The notes: generated by a model not told the origin, from the letters alone. A DNA stretch of 20,000 nt from an uncultured virus (IMG/VR IMGVR_UViG_3300030330_002895) (IMGVR_UViG_3300030330_002895:48470-68469), one strand, 5' to 3'. Positions 4,061-15,364 are shown, counted from the stretch's first letter. Made by a program: numbers and translations.

Positions 4061-4076
4061 ATTTGTATATTTGTAT
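4060..4076 (+). promoter_or_regulatory. Putative Bacteroidota-type promoter (-7 box TAnnTTTG), copy 2
   Basis: Identical 17-mer to 340-356; TATATTTG at 4066-4073 lies immediately before ATG ATG (4075/4078). Confidence 0.65.
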
Positions 4077-5142
4077 GATGAAAAAGATATTATTATTTTT
4101 TGTATTATTAACTGCCATGTGTAGTTCTCAAAATTTTTTTAAGTATTCTACTTTTTATGCCTCTTCTACAATGGGTTCTTCTACTCTAGAGGATGGCATG
4201 TTTAAAATAGAAAACAAAGAGTTATTAGATATTACAGAAGTGCATGCTTACGACTATAATGTAACATTGGGCTGGAGAAAAGTGGCTCGTTTTGATTATG
4301 AAGGCAAAATTAAGTCTTTTTATGACGGAACTGAGTCTACAATGTCAAATAAGGCTCCTATAGGCAATGCTAAGGGGTTTGAATATTTAGCAAATATATC
4401 TTTAGTTCGAGATAGGGGAGAACAATACATAAATCAGGATTTCTTTTTACGTTATTTGAGTGATTCGTATGTTTTTAAAGCACAGTTTGTGGACAATCAA
4501 AGGGTAGACTTAAAATATGTGTTATCTGAGCTTAAATGGCGTAAAAACGTGGGAAATTGGGATTTTACTATAGGTGGTGCATTTAGAATACACCCAGCAT
4601 ACGGTTTTTTGCCAATATATGAGTTTTGGGACCCAGCTGTAACACCATTTACAGCAATAGCTGAAGACTTTGGTTATGTAAGTGAACAATGGATGCAGGG
4701 TAATTATGTAAATTATGATTGGTTTGATATAAGCAGTGGAGACTCTGTACAGGTAGCACACACAACAGGAGAGTTTATGCAGTACCATTTTGGTAATGCG
4801 ATAGACGATTTTAATGATAGTGAACTAGAAAAACTAGGATTACAAAAAGAATTATCAGTAACACTAGGAGTTGCATATTACAAGTGGACTCCAGAATGGT
4901 GGTTACACGGCTGGATGAATATTCTTCCTTACCACGTAGGCCTTGACGATTACAGTTTTGACTACACGCTACCCCAGTGGGAGGACGACCCTATACCAGC
5001 CGTAATAGAATGGGACGCTGGTCTCGTTATGGGGGTTAGATTGACTAAAAGTTTGGGATTTTTTATGGAGGGTGTTCATCAAAGATATTGGATGAAACCT
5101 GTCTATGAATTTAAGGTTGGTATAAATTATTTATTTTTGTAA
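4075..5142 (+). CDS. Secreted, probable outer-membrane beta-barrel protein
   Basis: Signal peptide MMKKILLFFVLLTAMCSS|Q; aromatic-rich alternating strands; C-terminal YEFKVGINYLFL resembles a BAM beta-signal. Start moved from TTG 4063 to ATG 4075/4078. Confidence 0.65.
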   Translation: MMKKILLFFVLLTAMCSSQNFFKYSTFYASSTMGSSTLEDGMFKIENKELLDITEVHAYDYNVTLGWRKVARFDYEGKIKSFYDGTESTMSNKAPIGNAKGFEYLANISLVRDRGEQYINQDFFLRYLSDSYVFKAQFVDNQRVDLKYVLSELKWRKNVGNWDFTIGGAFRIHPAYGFLPIYEFWDPAVTPFTAIAEDFGYVSEQWMQGNYVNYDWFDISSGDSVQVAHTTGEFMQYHFGNAIDDFNDSELEKLGLQKELSVTLGVAYYKWTPEWWLHGWMNILPYHVGLDDYSFDYTLPQWEDDPIPAVIEWDAGLVMGVRLTKSLGFFMEGVHQRYWMKPVYEFKVGINYLFL

Positions 5143-5143
5143 T

Positions 5144-5893
5144 ATGAAGAAACTAATATCTATATTAATTACTATATCCTCTTTTGCTTTTGGTCAAGGT
5201 TACGACTTTCAACAGTTGTGCTTAGACTGTGCAGCTCAAAATGGATTTTATTGTGGGGACGACCCAGCTAATTGGACTCAGTATTCTCCTAATGGCTGTG
5301 TTCCTAATGGTCAAGGAAACTTGTTTTATCTTAATGACGGGTGGGACGATTGTGTTGATGGAGCTGATGAAGATAACGCAGAACCAACATCACCATTAGA
5401 TTGTTTACCTCCTATTTTAGAAGAGTGTGACACTATATTTGTTGATATACCAATATACATATATGAAACAGAATTTATTTTTGATACTATTGTAGAAACA
5501 GAGTATATTACTAATATAGTAATTGACACAGTGCAAATTGAAACGTTTGTTCCTGAATATATATATGTTACAGACACGGTGTATGTTTATGAAGATGTGT
5601 TAGACACATTGTTTGTAGATGTTGTAGAGTATGTGGATGTAATTGTTTATGACACCGTAGTAGAAACTGAATACGTGGAAATTTTTGTTATAGATACTGT
5701 TACTGAGTATATAGAAATAATAAACACAGAATATATAGATTGCGATACTGGTTTGCCTTGTAACAGTTCGCTTGCAGAAATATTAGATAAATCAACATCT
5801 AATAATTTACTATATAATTTACAAGGGCAAGTAATAAGAAAACCAGAAGGTGTTTACATCGAAGGAGGTAGTATTAAATATAAAATAAATTAA
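5144..5893 (+). CDS. Secreted protein with LDL-receptor class A-like motif, DT(V/I) repeat stalk and T9SS-like C-terminal sorting tail
   Basis: Signal MKKLISILITISSFAFG|Q; FYC...CVP...YLNDGWDDCVDGADE; repeated DT(I/V/L) units; C-terminal LYNLQGQVIRKPEGVYIEGGSIKYKIN. Confidence 0.6.
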   Translation: MKKLISILITISSFAFGQGYDFQQLCLDCAAQNGFYCGDDPANWTQYSPNGCVPNGQGNLFYLNDGWDDCVDGADEDNAEPTSPLDCLPPILEECDTIFVDIPIYIYETEFIFDTIVETEYITNIVIDTVQIETFVPEYIYVTDTVYVYEDVLDTLFVDVVEYVDVIVYDTVVETEYVEIFVIDTVTEYIEIINTEYIDCDTGLPCNSSLAEILDKSTSNNLLYNLQGQVIRKPEGVYIEGGSIKYKIN

Positions 5894-5895
5894 TT

Positions 5896-6120
5896 ATGGC
5901 TTTTAAAGATATTATGGGCAAAATTGGTGGCGCTGTTAAAGGTGCTGCAGGTGCTGGTATGTTAGGACCAGTAGGAATGCTAGCAGGTAAACTTTTAGGT
6001 AAGAAAGGAATGCGAGTAAAAAAAGGAAAGAAAAAAATGATGGGCGGTGGAAAGATGAAATATAAGTATAAAAAAGGAGGCTCTGTAAAAAGAGATATGT
6101 TTACTCAGCAATACGACTAA
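5896..6120 (+). CDS. Small Gly/Lys/Met-rich basic protein ending in QYD
   Basis: 74 aa; glycine-rich amphipathic N-half, Lys-rich C-half, terminal QQYD. Confidence 0.7.
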   Translation: MAFKDIMGKIGGAVKGAAGAGMLGPVGMLAGKLLGKKGMRVKKGKKKMMGGGKMKYKYKKGGSVKRDMFTQQYD

Positions 6121-6694: not shown

Positions 6695-6972
6695 AAGAAA
6701 TATCAGAAGATTCTAAATTTGAAGTAAGCCTAAAATCATTAGGAGGCTTAGCAGTTTTAATTTTTGCTTTTGTAGGTATGTGGTTTACACTACAAGCCGA
6801 CATAGCTGAGGCAAAAGAACTTCCAATCCCACCTAAACCAGAAGTTACCAAAATGGAATTTGATATGAAAGACAAAATGATACGTGCAACTATTATGACA
6901 ACACAAGAAGATGTGAAAGAAATTAAAGAAGACATTAAGTATCTTAGAGACAAAATAGATGACATGCAATGA
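6691..6972 (+). CDS. Single-TM protein with C-terminal coiled coil
   Basis: LGGLAVLIFAFVGMWF TM segment, PIPPKP linker, heptad VKEIKEDIKYLRDKID. Confidence 0.65.
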   Translation: MKEISEDSKFEVSLKSLGGLAVLIFAFVGMWFTLQADIAEAKELPIPPKPEVTKMEFDMKDKMIRATIMTTQEDVKEIKEDIKYLRDKIDDMQ

Positions 6973-7358
6973 ATATAGCTAATCATATATTAATTTTATT
7001 GGGTGTTTTATTTTTTATAGTAGGTAGCGCTTTTGGACAGGACTTTGTAAGTTCTGACAACTTTAACAAAACAATAGCAAAAGATGTTGTTGTAGTGGAG
7101 TTTTGGGTAGAATGGAACGCCTCTAATCAATTTGCAGAATTAAACAAATTAAAAGAGTGTGAAAAGTATAGGGTAGATATAGGCAAGTGCAATAAGATAC
7201 AAAACAAATATAATGTATCTGCAATACCAACTGTTTTAGTTTTTGAAAACGGAGAGGAAAGAGAAAGGTTTGGACCTAATATAATGTTTCAATTAGATGC
7301 TGACAAAAAAACAATACAACACTCTGTAGATACAATAATATTAAATAAATTTCAATAA
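6969..7358 (+). CDS. Exported thioredoxin-fold protein lacking the CXXC motif
   Basis: Signal ...GSAFG|Q; VVVEFWVEWNASN replaces DFWAxWCGPC; YRVDI and KYNVSAIPTVLVFENGEE match the thioredoxin C-terminal half with the cis-Pro. Confidence 0.75.
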   Translation: MNIANHILILLGVLFFIVGSAFGQDFVSSDNFNKTIAKDVVVVEFWVEWNASNQFAELNKLKECEKYRVDIGKCNKIQNKYNVSAIPTVLVFENGEERERFGPNIMFQLDADKKTIQHSVDTIILNKFQ

Positions 7359-7849
7359 TGGCATTACAAGAGTTATTAGCATATTCAGCACAAAAAGTAA
7401 CAATAAAAGCTTTAAGAGGTAATCATTTTCAATTAGTGATTAATGTTAAAACAAGTAGTGGTGCTAATTATGATTTTACAAACTCTTCCACCGAAGTAGA
7501 TAATGGTTATTTTCAAGTTATAACTCCTTCTGGTAATCAAATGCAAAATATATATGCTGCTTATCAAGGCGGTACTTTAGAAAATATTGCGCCTGAACCT
7601 ATAACATTTGATACTGTTGTAGAAGATGGAAAAATAACAATTACGTCAACAAACAATAATGGTTTCTGGCCTGCCCCTGGTATATATAGATACAATATTT
7701 TTACACAAAAAGTTGACTCTACAGAAACTAATGACCAATTAACTCACTGGTTGTTTGGCGACTTTATTGTTATTGATGACAACCCTTCAAGTAACCTAGG
7801 AGGTGTTCCTGCTGCTGAGCAAGGATTTTTTCCTATAATAGAAGGATAA
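7358..7849 (+). CDS. Putative virion beta-sandwich protein (BppU-N-like RG-x-x-F pattern)
   Basis: KVTIKALRGNHFQLVINVK...YDFT...GKITIT...GIYRYNI...WLFGDFIV pattern typical of phage baseplate/tail Ig-like adaptor domains. Confidence 0.6.
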   Translation: MALQELLAYSAQKVTIKALRGNHFQLVINVKTSSGANYDFTNSSTEVDNGYFQVITPSGNQMQNIYAAYQGGTLENIAPEPITFDTVVEDGKITITSTNNNGFWPAPGIYRYNIFTQKVDSTETNDQLTHWLFGDFIVIDDNPSSNLGGVPAAEQGFFPIIEG

Positions 7850-7860
7850 AATAAAAAATT

Positions 7861-10800
7861 ATGCCTGAAAATATATCTACATATTGGGCAAAAAACGTTA
7901 AAATAAAAACATTAAGGGGCAATAGATTTGAATTTGTTTTAAATGTTAGAAATGAAGATGGCTCTGACTATTCTTTTCCAGAGGGCCATGTGGCGTTTTT
8001 TGCAGCTTTTAAAAACGTGTCTAACCCTGTGGGTACAATAATGCCCACATCTTCTGGCGCAGCTATACCCTTTAAAACTTTAGTTGAAGAAGGTAAAATT
8101 ACAGTAAACACTTTAGGTGGAGAAGAGTCGTTTTATCCAATAGTTGGAACATATAGCTATATTTTGTTTACATATAATCCTAATGATGTTGGCGTTAACT
8201 TAGAAGATTTAATGGAAAACATCATTCCAAATTGGCATTTAAGAGTTGGTTGGATGAGTGATGAATTAACTGATTTATGGACTAATCCTTATGAAACAGA
8301 TTCTAATATTTTACAAAATGGTTATTACGACGAATGGTTTCATGTTGTAGGAGACGAAGGACTTTATCCATGTTTTATACCAGAATGGAAACTTTTACAA
8401 GCAAATCAAGAGTCTGGTTCTAATTTATATTATAGCCAGCCTTTAATAGATTTTCCATATATAAATAATGACTACCTAGATAATAATGATGTTTGGAGCA
8501 ACAACAAGCTAACATATCAAAATGGAATGGAAGAGCTTGTTTTAAAAACTATTATACACAGAAAAAATATAGTTAAATGTATATTTGATGAAAGACAATA
8601 TTTGTATAAATGGTCAGTGGTTCCTATACCCGTTAGATACAATTCTCAATGTTCAGTTACAAATATACCACCACCTGCTACAGAAATTTTTCCAAATGCT
8701 AGCTCTTGGACTAATATTGATGGCGATTCTTATACTTTTCACACAGGCAATTATCCATTTAATTTTTCTCAATATGTAAATATAGACCCTGAAAACTCTG
8801 AAATTGGTACGGTGTTTAGTGCAGAAGAATTATTTAACCTAAGTCAATATTTTGATATAGATACAGGACTAACAACTATAGATTTTGCAACAATAGATAT
8901 GCCAGACACTGTTATTAATCTTTTGCCATTTGTTGATACTGTTGACGAAATGTTATCTGAAGACATATCAAGTCCAGGCTTTGGACTTAACAGCCAAGAT
9001 TTTTCTTATACTGGATTTTCAACTATGAGTGCTGCTACGTCATCATTTATGTATGCAACGTTTAATTATTTTTATGAACAATCTTTAGAATTGTCTGCCA
9101 ACTATGTTCCAGGAGACCTTTTGTATTACCCTATAAATGCAGAATTTGACAGTAATACAGTATTTTCTTTTCAAATGTATTTTTCAGGACTTAACCCAGA
9201 GCAAACATTTTTATCGTGGGGTATTTTTCCTTATGGTAATGGTCCTAGCGCTAATAATTTGGTGGCTACAAATTTAGTAGCTCCTGGTTATTTTGGTTTT
9301 CCTACTTTTGAAGAATATATAGAGTTTAATAGTATTGGAGGTTCTCCTCCAGGAAATTACACGCAAGGTTTAAATGACTGGAGAAGAATTAAGCCTGAAA
9401 AAGTGGGTTTACCGTACGCCCCAATAGAGTCTTTAGATGACTTAGACACTTTACTTTCTCCACCACCAATGGGGGTGTCAGACTATTTTACTGTAATGTT
9501 TGGAGGCGCTTCTTTAGAATATCCAGACGCTTTTCCTTGGTGGTCGTATTATCAAACTGGAGGCACTGGCAATATTAATGTTCCATATGTTTCTAATTAT
9601 AGCGCTATTTTTGCAGAAGGTGCTGAAATAACAGATGCATGGCTACCCTTTTATAGCCCACAATCTTTAGTTGATTGGAATGAAGACTATTTAATATTTC
9701 CTAAAACATCTTATTTTGTAGATATGTTTAACACATATCCTGAGCTAGGTCATATTCCTACAGACGCTATAGGGATAGAGGAACCAACCAATGTTATGCT
9801 TGAACAGTTAGGAAATGAATTTCCAATAAGCCCAGAGCATCAAAATCTTCCTGTAAACACAAATACACCTGGTTGGAATTTAATTCCATATTTAGGTCTT
9901 GAAAGTACTTTATGGAACTATTTAAACTACACTAATGAAGCTGATTTACCTGGATTTGTATTGTCGGGAGGTGGCGATGTCACATATTGGGGCGTGCCTA
10001 TAGAAGATGCATATGAACAAACACCAACATATAATGAATATATATTTGAATACGACGGAGTAGTGTATGATTTTTCTACTTGGAGTTTAGAGCCGTCTGT
10101 AGATGAAAATGGTTTTCCAATTTTAAACACATTACAAGAGCAACAGGCTTGGTATGGAAACAATCAAATAAATGACCAGGGGGAACCAACTGGACTTATA
10201 GATGATAACCTTACAGTTTATACACCTTTTGCAAGCCCTGACTCATTTGGGTACTCTTTTCCTGGTGGTTATTATAATCCTGCTAATCAGGGTTTGCCCC
10301 CTATACCTAATTCTATTGTAGATTTTGTTTCTAATACACCTGGATTAGACGGAACAATTTATGACTTATGGTGGAACATGTCTAACAGTTTAATAAATTC
10401 TATTACCGAAGTTAGCTCCGTTTTTTCTAATCAAATATATTTACAAGAACAATCGCCAGTAACTGCTTTTGATATAGGCATAAATAATGGACTTGATTTT
10501 CAAACTTCTAGTTACGGTTATAATAATGTAACTGAAGATTTTTTTAACCAAAGCTATGCGCCACAATTTGATGTGTATATATCTGGCTATATATTAAATG
10601 CAATGGCAGCACATGTTAGATTTTATCAAGAAGGAACGAATATAGGGACTGGTCAAATACACGCATTTTGCAGAATTACTCGTCCCGACGGAACAGGTTT
10701 TCCAGTAAAACCAGAATTTAATACTATATATGGCGAATATGAAATTAATGAATTTAATCAAATACAATCACAAGCAGGCAGCTCTTCATATGTTACTCCT

Positions 10801-13302
10801 TATGGCCTTGGAATGTTTACTGAAGTTTATAATTTAAATGATGAAGACACTGAAACAACAATTATACCTATAGCTAGAGCTCATCAATTTAATTTTAAAC
10901 CTGCTTTTGATGGGTCTGTGCTTACAGACGCCACCCCTGTAGCTGGACAACCTGGAGCTTATGAATTTCTTTTTAGGTTTGTTACCCCATTTGGAGGTGC
11001 TAATCAAGTAAATTCAAACACATTAGATAGTGTTATGGACACGGGTTGGGATTATATAGATTGGGATAATGCTGGTGATAGAAAATTTGTGGTTGAATAT
11101 AGGTTTGCAAATTTAAAAACAATGTCTCCACCTTTTGTTCCTGAAATAAAAAATTGGATTTTTTTAAACGCAAGTAAAAGGGTTTCTATTGTTAACTCTA
11201 TGCAACAAAGTGTATTAAAATTTACAGGCTATGAGCCTTTAATAGGGAGAACTAATCCTGGTAATATTAATAAAAACTATTGGACTATGGGTACTTCTGT
11301 TGTTGTAAATGGTAATTTTCCAGAAGTTCCAAACCCTGACAATTCTGGAATTTTTTCTAACGACGCACTTTATAGAATAGAGCACGTACCTCCAGAAGGT
11401 AGTATAATTAAATTTTTTTTAGAAGATATTGGAGATGAATTGGGTGAAGGCTACACAAATGTTGCAGAAAATTCAAGTTGGGATTATTATGGATATGGAG
11501 GGTCACTTGAAAATGAATTACCTATTGGTACTAATCAAGGTGGGCAACCTAGCGATATATATGATACATATGATTACTTTAATCCTTATTTTAATATTGA
11601 GATTAAAAGTACGTGGCAACATACGAATGGTCGATTTGGTATAGATATAAATCGTTTAACAGAAGTGTTGTGGGACGGTGCTCTTGGTGCTGCAATGGGT
11701 GCTCCAACGGGGGGTAATTACAGCGCTGCATTGTGGGGCGTAGAAATTAATCCAGAACATTATCCAATATATCAAATAGACCAGCTACCTAATGAAGGAG
11801 AATCTCTTTTTAAAGTTTACAATGCGTTGGGTGATGGTTTTGGTACTGAATTACCTCCAATTCTTTTTGATATGTATTATTTAAATGAATCAACTGGAGA
11901 AACAGGTATTGTAGAAATACGTAATGCAAGTTTGTATATGAGCATTCCTATCGCAAATAATGGATTGTCTTCTCTTTATAATGACAATAGCGGCCCTGTA
12001 AATGGTACTGGTGGAAGTTCTGGTTTTAATATAGAAACACCACTTAATTATCAAAATTGGAATGGAGTAAATGCTTTAGACGACACTCCTTATATTGAAC
12101 AAGTAGCTAATCAACAAAATATGTTATCTAGTGCGTGGTTAATTCCAAGGTCAAGAATTTTAAATACTAAGCGAATATTTTGGCATGGGGCTACCTCACA
12201 GAATACGGAAGAAAATGAAATAATTACTTCATATTATGGAATGACATATAGTGAAATAAATTCTAATTGGCAGGGTCTTGCAGGTTATTTATCTTTAAGC
12301 CCCATAGACAATGAATTTGAGACTAGAGGAGGCTCTAACAATAGTAGGGACATAACTGCTATATTGCCGCAAAACCCAGAGTGGCATGGCAATCCAATGA
12401 AATTTTGGTTTGAAAGCAGAGAGTTTTACAAGCCAAGAATTATAGGGGGACCTCCTCCAGAGCTTGGTGGAACAAACCCGTATTGGCAAGCAGAAGAAAT
12501 ATGTTTAAGAGCGGGTGGAGTTTTTATAAATAAGATTAGTGGAGGGCATGTAGAAATTAATGCACAAAATTGTTCATATACTGATGTTTTTTGGACTCCA
12601 GAAATAATGGCTGAATGGCCAACAGACCCAGAGTCAGGACTTTTTATTCCCGCAGAACACCCTAATGGAAGTGGTCAATTAATATATGGAAAAGTTTATG
12701 CTTATTGGGTTCCTCCTGGAAGAGGTATGGCTCCTCCAAGAATAACTTTTTTAAGCAAAAGTATTAGAAGGGTAAACTATACAGAATTTTTAGGAACTGA
12801 TGCGCAAAGTCAGCCTTCTAGGGTTGTAGAAAGAAAAGGTGAATTGAGAGTGTCAGGAACAGCCATGACTATGGATTTGATGAAACTTACAATAAATGAA
12901 CCTCCTGAATATAATTTGTTTGAATACACGGTAAAAATAACTAAGGCTGATGACCCAGAATTTATATATGATACTTTTGATATAGACGCATCTGTGCCCT
13001 TTCCAACTGATTTTGAAAATTATGATTGGTCACAACCCACTACTGTCACAAATCAAACTACAATATTTTTAGGACAAATGGGCATACCTGATGGTCAAGA
13101 ATTGCAATTTTATATAAAACCAAAAGAAAGTTACAGGCAGTTTGATACATCTCAAGAATCCTACATAAGATTAGCTGGGACATACTTTTCAACTACATGG
13201 GGAAATAATTCGTATCTTAGTGAAGACGTGTTAACTCCTGTAAAAGCAAATTATTGGTTATATGGAGATTTTGTAGTAAATAAAAATAACGAAAACGAGT
13301 AA
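7861..13302 (+). CDS. 1813-aa acidic, aromatic-rich protein: split paralog of 7358..7849 carrying a giant insertion; probable virion appendage
   Basis: Uninterrupted ORF. The N-terminal ~105 aa and the last ~17 aa align to the upstream 163-aa protein. Confidence 0.8.
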   Translation: MPENISTYWAKNVKIKTLRGNRFEFVLNVRNEDGSDYSFPEGHVAFFAAFKNVSNPVGTIMPTSSGAAIPFKTLVEEGKITVNTLGGEESFYPIVGTYSYILFTYNPNDVGVNLEDLMENIIPNWHLRVGWMSDELTDLWTNPYETDSNILQNGYYDEWFHVVGDEGLYPCFIPEWKLLQANQESGSNLYYSQPLIDFPYINNDYLDNNDVWSNNKLTYQNGMEELVLKTIIHRKNIVKCIFDERQYLYKWSVVPIPVRYNSQCSVTNIPPPATEIFPNASSWTNIDGDSYTFHTGNYPFNFSQYVNIDPENSEIGTVFSAEELFNLSQYFDIDTGLTTIDFATIDMPDTVINLLPFVDTVDEMLSEDISSPGFGLNSQDFSYTGFSTMSAATSSFMYATFNYFYEQSLELSANYVPGDLLYYPINAEFDSNTVFSFQMYFSGLNPEQTFLSWGIFPYGNGPSANNLVATNLVAPGYFGFPTFEEYIEFNSIGGSPPGNYTQGLNDWRRIKPEKVGLPYAPIESLDDLDTLLSPPPMGVSDYFTVMFGGASLEYPDAFPWWSYYQTGGTGNINVPYVSNYSAIFAEGAEITDAWLPFYSPQSLVDWNEDYLIFPKTSYFVDMFNTYPELGHIPTDAIGIEEPTNVMLEQLGNEFPISPEHQNLPVNTNTPGWNLIPYLGLESTLWNYLNYTNEADLPGFVLSGGGDVTYWGVPIEDAYEQTPTYNEYIFEYDGVVYDFSTWSLEPSVDENGFPILNTLQEQQAWYGNNQINDQGEPTGLIDDNLTVYTPFASPDSFGYSFPGGYYNPANQGLPPIPNSIVDFVSNTPGLDGTIYDLWWNMSNSLINSITEVSSVFSNQIYLQEQSPVTAFDIGINNGLDFQTSSYGYNNVTEDFFNQSYAPQFDVYISGYILNAMAAHVRFYQEGTNIGTGQIHAFCRITRPDGTGFPVKPEFNTIYGEYEINEFNQIQSQAGSSSYVTPYGLGMFTEVYNLNDEDTETTIIPIARAHQFNFKPAFDGSVLTDATPVAGQPGAYEFLFRFVTPFGGANQVNSNTLDSVMDTGWDYIDWDNAGDRKFVVEYRFANLKTMSPPFVPEIKNWIFLNASKRVSIVNSMQQSVLKFTGYEPLIGRTNPGNINKNYWTMGTSVVVNGNFPEVPNPDNSGIFSNDALYRIEHVPPEGSIIKFFLEDIGDELGEGYTNVAENSSWDYYGYGGSLENELPIGTNQGGQPSDIYDTYDYFNPYFNIEIKSTWQHTNGRFGIDINRLTEVLWDGALGAAMGAPTGGNYSAALWGVEINPEHYPIYQIDQLPNEGESLFKVYNALGDGFGTELPPILFDMYYLNESTGETGIVEIRNASLYMSIPIANNGLSSLYNDNSGPVNGTGGSSGFNIETPLNYQNWNGVNALDDTPYIEQVANQQNMLSSAWLIPRSRILNTKRIFWHGATSQNTEENEIITSYYGMTYSEINSNWQGLAGYLSLSPIDNEFETRGGSNNSRDITAILPQNPEWHGNPMKFWFESREFYKPRIIGGPPPELGGTNPYWQAEEICLRAGGVFINKISGGHVEINAQNCSYTDVFWTPEIMAEWPTDPESGLFIPAEHPNGSGQLIYGKVYAYWVPPGRGMAPPRITFLSKSIRRVNYTEFLGTDAQSQPSRVVERKGELRVSGTAMTMDLMKLTINEPPEYNLFEYTVKITKADDPEFIYDTFDIDASVPFPTDFENYDWSQPTTVTNQTTIFLGQMGIPDGQELQFYIKPKESYRQFDTSQESYIRLAGTYFSTTWGNNSYLSEDVLTPVKANYWLYGDFVVNKNNENE

Positions 13303-13303
13303 A

Positions 13304-13594
13304 ATGAAATATTTAGTTGACAAAACATCTGGATTAAATATAGTTCATAATAATTTAAGTGGATTGCCAGAAATTACTATTAACTTAAGTTTGTCTAAAG
13401 CAAAAATAGTTTTAAAAAATAGCGCACATATAAGTGGCGTTTACGATTTAAACACTGGTAAAAAAAATCCAGGAATGTCATATTGTGAAATACAAGAAAA
13501 AAAACCAACCATTACAGATGATTGGATTTCTATTTCATCAACTACAAAAAATCAATTATCCCTTAACTTAAAAACTAAATTAAAACAATTATGA
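13304..13594 (+). CDS. Hypothetical protein
   Basis: 96-aa ORF tightly packed between neighbours (1-nt gap upstream, ATGA overlap downstream). Confidence 0.6.
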   Translation: MKYLVDKTSGLNIVHNNLSGLPEITINLSLSKAKIVLKNSAHISGVYDLNTGKKNPGMSYCEIQEKKPTITDDWISISSTTKNQLSLNLKTKLKQL

Positions 13595-14079
13595 AATTAG
13601 AAGTAATACGAGTGTCTAATAGCAATGACTCTACAAGTGGTTTATTATATATATCTCATGGAGATTTTGACAAAGAGTTTTTGTGTTACACTTTAGAAGA
13701 TGAATATAGAAAAGAAAAAAAATATGGAGAAACTAGAATCCCTGAAGGGACTTATAAGCTTGGCCTTAGAACAGTTGGTGGCTATAATGAAAAATATAAA
13801 AAACGTTTTAAAGACATTCATATTGGCATGCTTCACGTTCTTGATGTGCCTAATTTTGAGTATATACTTATACATTGTGGTAATACTGACGAGCATACAG
13901 CTGGCTGCCTCCTTGTGGGAGACACCCAAGAAAACAACAAAATCAAGAAGGACGGTTTTATAGGTAAGTCATCACAAGCATATAAAAGAATATATCCTGA
14001 AATAGCTAAAGCTATAAAAATAGGTCAGGAAGTAACAATCACATATAAAGATATAACTAACGGTAATTGTGTATGTTAA
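13591..14079 (+). CDS. DUF5675-family protein, candidate cell-wall enzyme/endolysin
   Basis: CYTLED, IPEGTYKL and ILIHCGNTDEHTAGCLLVG are signature motifs of DUF5675; gene is adjacent to a holin. Confidence 0.8.
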   Translation: MKLEVIRVSNSNDSTSGLLYISHGDFDKEFLCYTLEDEYRKEKKYGETRIPEGTYKLGLRTVGGYNEKYKKRFKDIHIGMLHVLDVPNFEYILIHCGNTDEHTAGCLLVGDTQENNKIKKDGFIGKSSQAYKRIYPEIAKAIKIGQEVTITYKDITNGNCVC

Positions 14080-14571: not shown

Positions 14572-14901
14572 ATGGCAAAAACACCAGCATGGCAAAGAAA
14601 AGAGGGTAAAAACCCTAGTGGTGGCTTAAATAAAAAAGGAGTTGCTTCTTATAGAAGAGCAAACCCTGGCTCTAAACTTAAAACAGCTGTAACCACTAAG
14701 CCTTCTAAATTAAAAAAAGGAAGTAAAGCTGCTAAAAGACGTAAATCTTTTTGTGCTAGAATGAAAGGTATGAAAAAAAGACTTACTAGCGCAAAAACAG
14801 CAAGAGACCCAAATTCAAGAATAAATAAATCTCTTCGTAAATGGAATTGTAATACAGGTTGTAGAGTTCCTATGAGAAAAGCTGGAGAACAATACGATTA
14901 G
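14572..14901 (+). CDS. DUF6321-like basic protein ending in QYD
   Basis: AWQRKEGKNPSGGLN...GSKLK...RRKSFCARMKG...SLRKWNC is a recognisable phage family pattern; terminal EQYD. Confidence 0.75.
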   Translation: MAKTPAWQRKEGKNPSGGLNKKGVASYRRANPGSKLKTAVTTKPSKLKKGSKAAKRRKSFCARMKGMKKRLTSAKTARDPNSRINKSLRKWNCNTGCRVPMRKAGEQYD

Positions 14902-14903
14902 TT

Positions 14904-15095
14904 ATGGCAAAGAAAGATGCATGTTATTATAAAGTAAAACGTAGATATAAGGTTTGGCCTTCTGCATATGCAAGTGGTGCATTGGCTAAATGTAGAAAAA
15001 AAGGTGCTAAGAATTGGGGAACTGGTGGTAAAAAGAAAAAGAAAATGGCGCATGGTGGTAAAATTTGTTGTTTAATGAAGTATCAAAAAGATTAA
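14904..15095 (+). CDS. Small basic phage protein (KDACY-x-KVK...WPSAYASG motif)
   Basis: KKDACYYKVKRRYKVWPSAYASGALAKCRK, a motif I recall from marine phage proteins. Confidence 0.75.
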   Translation: MAKKDACYYKVKRRYKVWPSAYASGALAKCRKKGAKNWGTGGKKKKKMAHGGKICCLMKYQKD

Positions 15096-15364
15096 TGGCT
15101 GTACGTAAAACAAAAAAAGGTTTAGCTCTTAAACGATGGTTTAAAGAAGATTGGAGAACTCCGTCAGGCAAAAAAGATTATAGTGGTGGTGAAAGCACAT
15201 TTCGTCCTACAAAACGTGTATCAAAGAAAACGCCCTCTACATGGTCAGAGCTTACATCTGCAGAAAAGGCTGCGGCAAAAAAAGAAAAAAGAAAAAAGGG
15301 TAGGGTTGGTCGATATAAAAAGAAAAGAAAAAAAGAGCAAGGAGGTTTAATACAATACGATTAA
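15095..15364 (+). CDS. Basic phage protein (LKRWFKE-x-W...RP-x-KRVS-x-KTP motif, possibly DUF5872-like) ending in QYD
   Basis: Start taken at ATG 15095 (TAATG overlap with the previous stop) rather than TTG 15065; terminal IQYD. Confidence 0.7.
   Translation: MAVRKTKKGLALKRWFKEDWRTPSGKKDYSGGESTFRPTKRVSKKTPSTWSELTSAEKAAAKKEKRKKGRVGRYKKKRKKEQGGLIQYD

Follow-up and report, generated by a model that had tools for sequence, protein, structure and literature searches.

Why should a giant phage protein begin like its small neighbour and end on that neighbour's last strand? The question is raised by two adjacent genes of an uncultured virus (IMG/VR IMGVR_UViG_3300030330_002895), which lie on the plus strand of a stretch of 20,000 nucleotides (IMGVR_UViG_3300030330_002895:48470-68469) that we call the window. 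One gene encodes a small protein of 163 residues (P0001, 7358..7849), the other a giant of 1813 residues (P0002, 7861..13302). A preliminary description, made from the sequence alone, took the giant to be the domain of the small protein, split by a very long insertion and closed again by its own C-terminus. Our data support the split and the exchangeability of what lies inside it, and they suggest that the two ends of the giant associate, through a larger surface than a single returning strand.

The small protein and its interrupted copy

The small protein is predicted with AlphaFold2 (AF2), on a 30-sequence alignment, to be a nine-strand immunoglobulin (Ig)-like sandwich (predicted local distance difference test, pLDDT, 81.9; predicted template modelling score, pTM, 0.73), which is followed by a conserved tail, DDNPxxNLGGVP. 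It has the features of an Ig-superfamily beta-sandwich, of about 110-140 residues. The last (G) strand, residues 127-139 with the motif HWLFGDFIV (7736..7774, plus strand), appears integral to this fold, since the strand is predicted at a block pLDDT of 87-94; at least 90% of the 30 aligned small proteins share its residues W131, L132, G134 and V138. A profile search of 1.84 billion representatives returned 37 proteins, 34 of which match from within their first 7 residues, and 19 of 34 candidates are relatives of P0001 of similar length. The small gene was found in every related locus examined and is, by sequence comparison, the constant core gene of the locus.

Among 48,161 chains compared with the P0001 model by VIA-align, the top structural matches are phage collar, baseplate anchor and neck proteins, with generic Ig and filamin domains interspersed. 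Foldseek points the same way (8hqz_Q, E 2.7e-5), and its matches in BFVD include minor tail proteins and numerous small phage proteins that are uncharacterised. The chain 7qg9_R is, judging by its length, presumably T5 p132. When the 30-sequence profile was run with hmmsearch against PDB sequences, six hits at E<=1 were obtained with no phage protein among them (best E 0.083), and neither Pfam nor PHROG offers a family for P0001 or P0002. The modelled likeness to collar and baseplate anchors therefore seems to be one of fold and perhaps of role, and not one of family membership.

Residues 1-108 of the giant (7861..8184, plus strand) correspond to the small sandwich from its first through its penultimate strand (GTYSYILFT). 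BLASTP aligns P0001 4-116 with P0002 3-104 (33% identity, E 3e-14), in keeping with the earlier claim of an alignment over the first ~105 residues, and the 30-sequence small-family profile aligns with the N-terminal ends of the giants over 107 columns (probability 99.8%, E 1.6e-29). The counterpart of the last strand is YWLYGDFVV, residues 1798-1806 (13252..13278, plus strand), at the extreme C-terminus. Here BLASTP pairs P0001 130-142 with P0002 1798-1810 (7 of 13 residues identical, E 0.029 for that single comparison), and the same profile matches the C-terminal ends of the giants over 37 columns (probability 94%, E 1.2e-7) and nine diverse C-terminal ends over 48 columns (probability 96%, E 3.9e-9). 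With a small-family hidden Markov model (HMM; 155 positions, hmmsearch) the two matches in P0002 are complementary, HMM positions 1-121 falling on residues 1-108 and positions 123-142 on residues 1792-1811.

The last strand does indeed return only at the extreme C-terminus, as had been proposed. The six frames of the 68,469-bp genome contain the motif W[LMI][FYH]G[DNEK]F[IV][IVL] at exactly these two sites, and no counterpart of the strand is detectable just past residue 108 when residues 109-150 of nine giants are searched. The N-terminal alignment stops at residue 108, and forcing it further lowers the score from 176.8 to 172.1. The strand itself differs very little between small proteins and giants, and the C-terminal end that remains when it is removed has no significant likeness to the small family (profile E 0.19). 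A near-identical strand amid a diverged C-terminal end fits a strand that packs on the conserved N-terminal core.

The pattern extends beyond the window. All 13 long relatives have the N-terminal match and 10 of them the additional match at the extreme C-terminus, so that in these 10 the sequence of the host domain is colinear but interrupted, with both parts conserved, as in a nested insertion; P0026, P0028 and P0032 lack a C-terminal HMM match. The giants that are complete in metagenome loci all end with the motif (8 of 8; seven by regular expression, and WLHGDFVV in locus L018 read from the sequence end). The split match is real and not a product of chance, and it supports the view that the giant is a paralogue of the small gene, with a break in the recognisable domain ahead of the last strand and after the penultimate one.

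Two trivial origins of such a pattern can be set aside. An intein, of which the preliminary description had seen no motifs, is ruled out: the giant has no Pfam family at E<=1 and hence no Hint domain, the residue after the putative junction is Y and not the nucleophile C, S or T, and the residues before the strand are N-Y, H-Y, D-Y or K-Y in nine giants, whereas an intein would combine a Hint domain and such a nucleophile with a terminal HN. Assembly error is likewise excluded, because independent assemblies share the gene pair and contigs bridge both junctions. The pair also occurs in two IMG/VR contigs and in eight metagenome loci from several data sets, and contigs from four public runs, all DNA assemblies, cross both junctions without a joint there. 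One contig of 4750 nt covers 7866-12615 with zero differences from the window, and others cover 7280-9115 and 9097-13700. A search for a Peptidase_S74 domain (PF13884-type) at the C-terminus gave no Pfam match in P0002 and seven relatives, a distant form being possible.

Some features of the read data bear on the same region. The higher-depth contigs (runs X1 and X2) contain a joint that skips 176 nt, window 12716-12893, in the conserved C-terminal region. Extra contigs of relatives cover only 7000-7900 and 12586-12975 and probably stem from co-occurring strains with other middles. The raised summed depth over 7000-7900 and 12600-13050 reflects extra contigs from relatives, and we do not use it as evidence.

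Conserved ends, variable middles and presence among relatives

According to the preliminary description, a 13-residue loop of the small protein is replaced by about 1690 residues in the giant. The interruption stands, but its size has to be revised, as the conserved ends are longer than first stated: among giants, BLAST finds ~245 conserved residues at the N-terminus and 65-125 (about 90) at the C-terminus, which leaves a variable insert of ~1480 residues (~246-1722). The sandwich copy is thus followed by a second conserved N-terminal block, residues 109-245 (8185..8595), with the motifs HLRVGW, GYYxEWF, PEWKxLxAN, LTYQxGM and KNIVxCxF in 11 aligned sequences. Then come the variable middle, or passenger, residues ~246-1722 (8596..13026), and a conserved returning C-terminal block, residues 1723-1797 (13027..13251), with GIPDGxELQFxIKP, YRxFD and SYIRLAG, all on the plus strand. 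Across relatives, the motifs of the C-terminal block read GIPxGxExxxxIKP, YRxFD and GWIRL.

Pairwise BLAST comparisons make the arrangement plain. P0002 shares residues 1-243 (38% identity) and 1724-1810 (46%) with P0025 (1263 residues), residues 1-131, 199-299 and 1742-1808 with P0033 (1353 residues), and residues 1-242 and 1685-1807 with P0040 (1187 residues). Between such ends we count at least four types of middle, mutually unrelated by BLAST, in proteins of 1187-1813 residues. In the eight metagenome loci the giants measure 1813, 1810, 1799, 1699, 1300 (two loci), 1210 and 1223 residues. The middle has hypervariable patches even among close relatives: against P0023, identity in 100-residue bins is U-shaped, the opening bins reaching 90 and 84%, the closing bins 87 and 92%, and bins 4-5 and 12-15 only 20-46%. 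The middle of the window's giant has no family or PDB match, ESM Atlas gave no usable match for residues 246-1722, a PDB sequence search with P0002 returned nothing, and Pfam finds no family in seven of eight long relatives, the sole match being a dockerin in P0026. Taken together, the comparisons support co-conservation of both ends around exchangeable middles.

The giant gene is not a fixed part of the locus. An IMG/VR scan with the small-family alignment brought up seven new loci (L021-L027). One of them, L021, has a giant of 1300 residues; the other six have the thioredoxin-like gene, the small gene, the orf96-like gene and the lysis genes, and no giant. The relatives can be close. In L022, identity to the window is 96% for the exonuclease, 92% for the holin, 87% for the thioredoxin-like protein and 76% for the DUF5675 protein, and the orf96 homologue begins 10 nt past the small gene. 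Because such close relatives keep the small gene without the giant, the giant is an optional add-on, gained or lost directly after the small gene. Its position exactly after the constant small gene fits an origin by duplication of that gene. The small protein itself (7743-8336 in L022) is 44% identical between the two loci while its neighbours are 76-96% identical, which indicates that it evolves fast.

Further searches added little to this set. The 50,697 phage records from cultured phages gave no tblastn match to P0001 or P0002, and in bacterial and archaeal genomes 28 pattern matches were found, none of which was confirmed. A word search for longer relatives of P0001 yielded none among 450 candidates, IMG/VR scans with P0025, P0033 and P0040 gave none that was confirmed, and a scan with the C-end alignment found only two contigs that were already known.

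How the two ends may meet

If the giant is a split domain, its two ends should find each other. We predicted P0002 residues 1-270 (alignment of 11) and residues 1594-1813 (alignment of 7) as two separate chains, in three runs and with three controls. The interaction prediction score from aligned errors (ipSAE) is 0.68, 0.78 and 0.67 in the three runs, and the best of the three controls scores 0.00. The mark that we apply to ipSAE is reached by 116 of 157 solved complexes and by 2 of 215 mismatched pairs, counts that are only a rough guide here, since custom alignments were used. The interface is very large (551-597 contacts), the runs share at least 40% of contacts, and the partner has a pLDDT of at least 45, its own fold being uncertain. 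The prediction makes it likely that the two ends of the giant associate.

The confident interface comprises residues 9-21, 93-106, 123-132, 154-181 and 215-242 of the first chain and residues 130-145, 149-189 and 201-216 of the second, which are P0002 1723-1738, 1742-1782 and 1794-1809. Its best-supported pairs place QELQFYIK (1746-1753) between LTY (217-219) and WKLL (176-179). At a finer scale, 1746-1748 pair with 217-219, 1750-1752 with 176-179, 1733-1735 with 226-228, and 1761 and 1768 with 235-236. The paired strands are the conserved motifs of the N- and C-terminal blocks, strands of both ends interleave, and the limits of the interface coincide with the limits of conservation, which had been found independently by BLAST. 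In the N-terminal sandwich, the residues touched are all of the first strand region (9-21), all of the penultimate strand (93-106) and a scattering of others (27, 29, 43, 46, 49 and 80). Contacts on the first and the penultimate strand are what a strand in the vacant last-strand position would make, and on balance these lists of interface residues lead us to seat YWLYGDFVV there in the N-terminal sandwich. Of the preliminary claim that the N- and C-termini fold together into one beta-sandwich, the association is thus borne out by the prediction (0.68 against 0.00), whereas the picture of a single returning strand is not, as ~90 residues return and interleave with residues ~110-245.

These results suggest a model towards which we lean with some reserve. 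The giant would be an optional appendage protein of the virion, derived from the adjacent small gene, and the small protein would be a core Ig-like protein of the tail-collar or baseplate-anchor kind. Residues 1-108 of the giant would copy the sandwich as far as the penultimate strand; the chain would exit through block 109-245, traverse a lineage-specific middle of about 900-1480 residues and come back, its last ~90 residues interleaving strand by strand with block 109-245. YWLYGDFVV would most likely fill the vacant last-strand position beside the first and the penultimate strand. Both ends of the chain would then lie in one composite base (~245 plus ~90 residues) with the small protein's docking surface retained, and the looped-out middle, probably the part in contact with the host, would be swappable by recombination in the conserved ends. 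The location in the virion is suggested by the fold likeness to collar and baseplate anchors and by the gene position, and from the model we infer a host-binding role of the middle. More tentatively, the system may be a natural cassette display, in which an Ig-like docking domain carries unrelated payloads of 900-1480 residues that are swapped by recombination, the whole gene being gained or lost.

Several observations weigh against closure of the sandwich by the returning end. The 25 best-supported pairs all lie in another part of the interface than YWLYGDFVV. Fold confidence is low (pLDDT 45-59 in the complex), and the C-terminal end modelled alone (AF2, seven sequences) reaches a pLDDT of 43.6, too poor for a fold search. 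The missing strand could be replaced locally by HLRVGW (124-132), a conserved motif of the giants. P0026 (1317 residues) is 83% identical to P0025 over residues 1-721, but its end is made up of a cysteine-rich region and then a dockerin, and no C-terminal block can be detected; if P0026 is complete, the N-terminal block can exist without a C-terminal partner. Finally, the small-family HMM aligns colinearly, positions 21-139 or B strand to G strand, with the last ~120 residues of P0040 and of the L018 giant, and P0040 without its last strand is still a marginal match over HMM positions 21-73 (E 0.009 among 10 targets), so that the C-terminal end may be the decayed remnant of another, complete copy of the domain.

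The dockerin of P0026 (residues 1203-1256, type I, PF00404, E 2e-7), which stands beside the long cysteine-rich tract, is unusual in a marine phage protein. Dockerin-like repeats take the place of the returning block at the C-terminal end of P0032 as well. A hidden C-terminal block in P0026, at residues ~768-835, was considered and is unsupported by an HMM of nine C-terminal ends.

The points just listed are in part those of an alternative that we consider unlikely but take seriously, namely that the giant has two separate end domains. Its C-terminal ~120-150 residues would be an independent, diverged Ig-like copy that keeps the family motif only in the last strand and might be a distal tip or a folding aid, the N-terminal copy would be closed by HLRVGW, and the protein would be a linear fibre with its ends apart. 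The colinear HMM alignments, the conservation of HLRVGW and the absence of the C-terminal block from P0026 speak for it, as do the seven strands that AF2 builds in the C-terminal end alone and the weak but recurrent pairing of the B strand with NxFEYTVKITKADD (E 0.26, 0.17 and 0.038). However, once the last strand is removed, nine of ten C-terminal ends show nothing (E 0.22 to 2.2), and AF2, when it models the C-terminal end alone, has least confidence in the last 40 residues (pLDDT 31-40). Moreover, nearly all of the last ~90 residues contact the N-terminal block in the two-chain prediction, and separate end domains leave unexplained why block 109-245 and the C-terminal block are conserved jointly around unrelated middles. 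A full second copy of the domain at the C-terminal end therefore finds marginal support, and we keep it as a rival. The two ideas can also be reconciled: an origin from a second copy is compatible with strand completion if the remnant uses its last strand to dock where the N-terminal copy has its open edge.

Closure of the sandwich by the returning end, the arrangement that we prefer, could in principle take place between chains, the terminal block of one giant completing the N-terminal base of another to form closed dimers or trimers or head-to-tail chains. The prediction was made with two separate chains and cannot tell contact within a chain from contact between chains, and the N-terminal sandwich, like a pilin, has no recognisable last strand of its own. 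Nevertheless, nothing favours complementation between chains over closure within one, the small protein is complete in itself, and ~75 further residues interleave, which is more than a donated strand; we regard this variant as improbable. Least probable is that the pair is no part of the virion and acts in or on the infected cell (for example in the exclusion of other phages or in host takeover), the Ig-like fold being a generic binding module: neither protein matches a capsid or tail family, the giant is dispensable, and the neighbours include secreted-looking proteins and lysis genes, but neither protein has an N-terminal signal peptide by sequence, the genes close a one-direction block in which terminase, portal and major head protein come first, by fold the best matches are with collar, baseplate and neck proteins of phages, and conserved ends with hypervariable middles are typical of host-recognition proteins.

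Genomic setting, known systems and meaning

The window (GC content ~33%) is the final 20 kb of a virus record of 68,469 bp that CheckV rates as complete. TerL, the portal and the major head protein of the record match PHROG families at E 7.5e-90, 4e-112 and 5.3e-27, and they are followed by a long block of genes in one direction, which includes open reading frames (ORFs) of 2313 and 3981 residues and has P0001 and P0002 at its end. The shorter of these ORFs (G000:C1:24463-31404) matches the virion structural protein family phrog_28748 (E 5.7e-49); the longer one (G000:C1:36862-48807, ending at window position 338) has no PHROG match. A tblastn search of the 50,697 phage records with the portal matched 141, all at less than 60% identity. 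Since the best of these matches are crAss-like phages, at 27-29% identity, we read the virus as a distant marine relative of the crAss-like phages. Flavobacterium and Cellulophaga phages were matched likewise, and judged by these relatives of the portal the host of the phage group is probably a member of the Bacteroidota.

The genes on either side of the pair are conserved. Immediately 5' of the small gene, in all loci examined and at 66-88% identity, lies the gene of a thioredoxin-like protein (6969-7358; PF00085, E 7.7e-9) with a hydrophobic N-terminus. This neighbour deserves attention because the tail of crAss001 is reported to be held by disulfide bonds (PMC10172136). Directly 3' of the giant, or of the small gene where the giant is absent, follows orf96 (13304..13594, plus strand), which encodes 96 residues. 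Its homologues in L018, L021, L022 and L024 are 35-55% identical, its start overlaps the last codons of the giant in L016-L018, and it matched no family; we consider it a candidate assembly helper. Further downstream are the DUF5675 protein and then the holin.

Other proteins of the window are of interest in their own right. Three small, very basic Lys/Gly-rich proteins (5896-6120, 14572-14901 and 15065-15364) all end in QYD (…FTQQYD, …GEQYD and …LIQYD), and two of the three contain DUF6321 or DUF5872. The same ending is found in relatives in L024-L027 (…FTQQYD, …FMQYD) and may be a shared terminal signal. In the structural block, a protein of 359 residues (4063-5142) has a signal-peptide-like start and ends in …INYLFL, like an outer-membrane barrel, and a protein of 249 residues (5144-5893) has a signal-peptide-like, cysteine-rich start and an acidic repeat tract rich in D, E, T, V and Y. 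Neither has a family match, and homologues of both are visible in L015-L027.

How does the proposed architecture compare with known ones? The nearest known proteins, T5 p132 and the N-terminal domain of TP901-1 BppU (ORF48), have no sequence likeness to the P0001 family in the PDB profile search described above, and we know of no paralogue of p132 or BppU that is split by a giant insertion. What they share with P0001 is the small Ig-superfamily sandwich, which in their case is reported to anchor fibres or receptor-binding proteins to the tail; T5 p132 is described as a collar protein with an Ig fold, one that is related to the N-terminal domain of BppU and anchors side fibres (PMC10038345). 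A second parallel is offered by the evolved Dit proteins of siphophages, in which carbohydrate-binding modules are reported to be inserted in loops of the galectin domain (PMC7291167). There, too, a tail protein gains function through domains nested in a loop of a beta-sandwich, the two halves of the sandwich are conserved, and plain and decorated versions exist (PMC7291167). The inserts described for evolved Dit are of one or two modules, whereas that of the giant is 900-1480 residues long, and the decorated Dit replaces the plain one, whereas in the present locus both versions, the plain small gene and the decorated giant, are neighbours. Unlike in evolved Dit, moreover, the insert of the giant precedes the last strand, and a further ~135 outgoing and ~75 returning residues are conserved and predicted to interleave.

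At the sequence level, the giant's N-terminal domain resembles chaperone-usher pilins in lacking a last strand of its own. In pili, an Ig-like fold is completed by a strand from elsewhere. The pilin strand comes from the N-terminus of another subunit, whereas that of the giant would come from the C-terminus of the same protein, within or between chains. For crassviruses, the accessible part of the structural atlas mentions fibre docking for N-terminal residues only. In the literature on discontinuous domains and domain insertion in phage tail fibres, titles and the opening lines of abstracts do not describe the architecture, which is no proof that it is unpublished. What is new is how large the insert is, the predicted interleaving of outgoing with returning blocks, and the existence of a complete, independent copy in the neighbouring gene. 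Also new are the marine crAss-like setting and the finding that of two close relatives one may have the giant and the other lack it.

In the usual reading of phage host-recognition proteins, the N-terminal part is a conserved anchor and the variable part that binds lies C-terminal to it. In the giant, instead, both ends are conserved and predicted to fold together, enclosing the variable part, and the adjacent gene encodes the anchor once more as a small protein, complete in itself. If this holds true, it would provide a rule for locating anchor and payload where giant proteins of marine crAss-like phages lack annotation, it would explain how a payload can change without the docking surface being touched, and it would amount to a natural scaffold in which inserts may exceed 1000 residues. 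Should closure occur from one chain to another, the phage would be employing donor-strand exchange. The two-ended anchor would, if true, be a new architecture for the host-recognition proteins of crAss-like phages.

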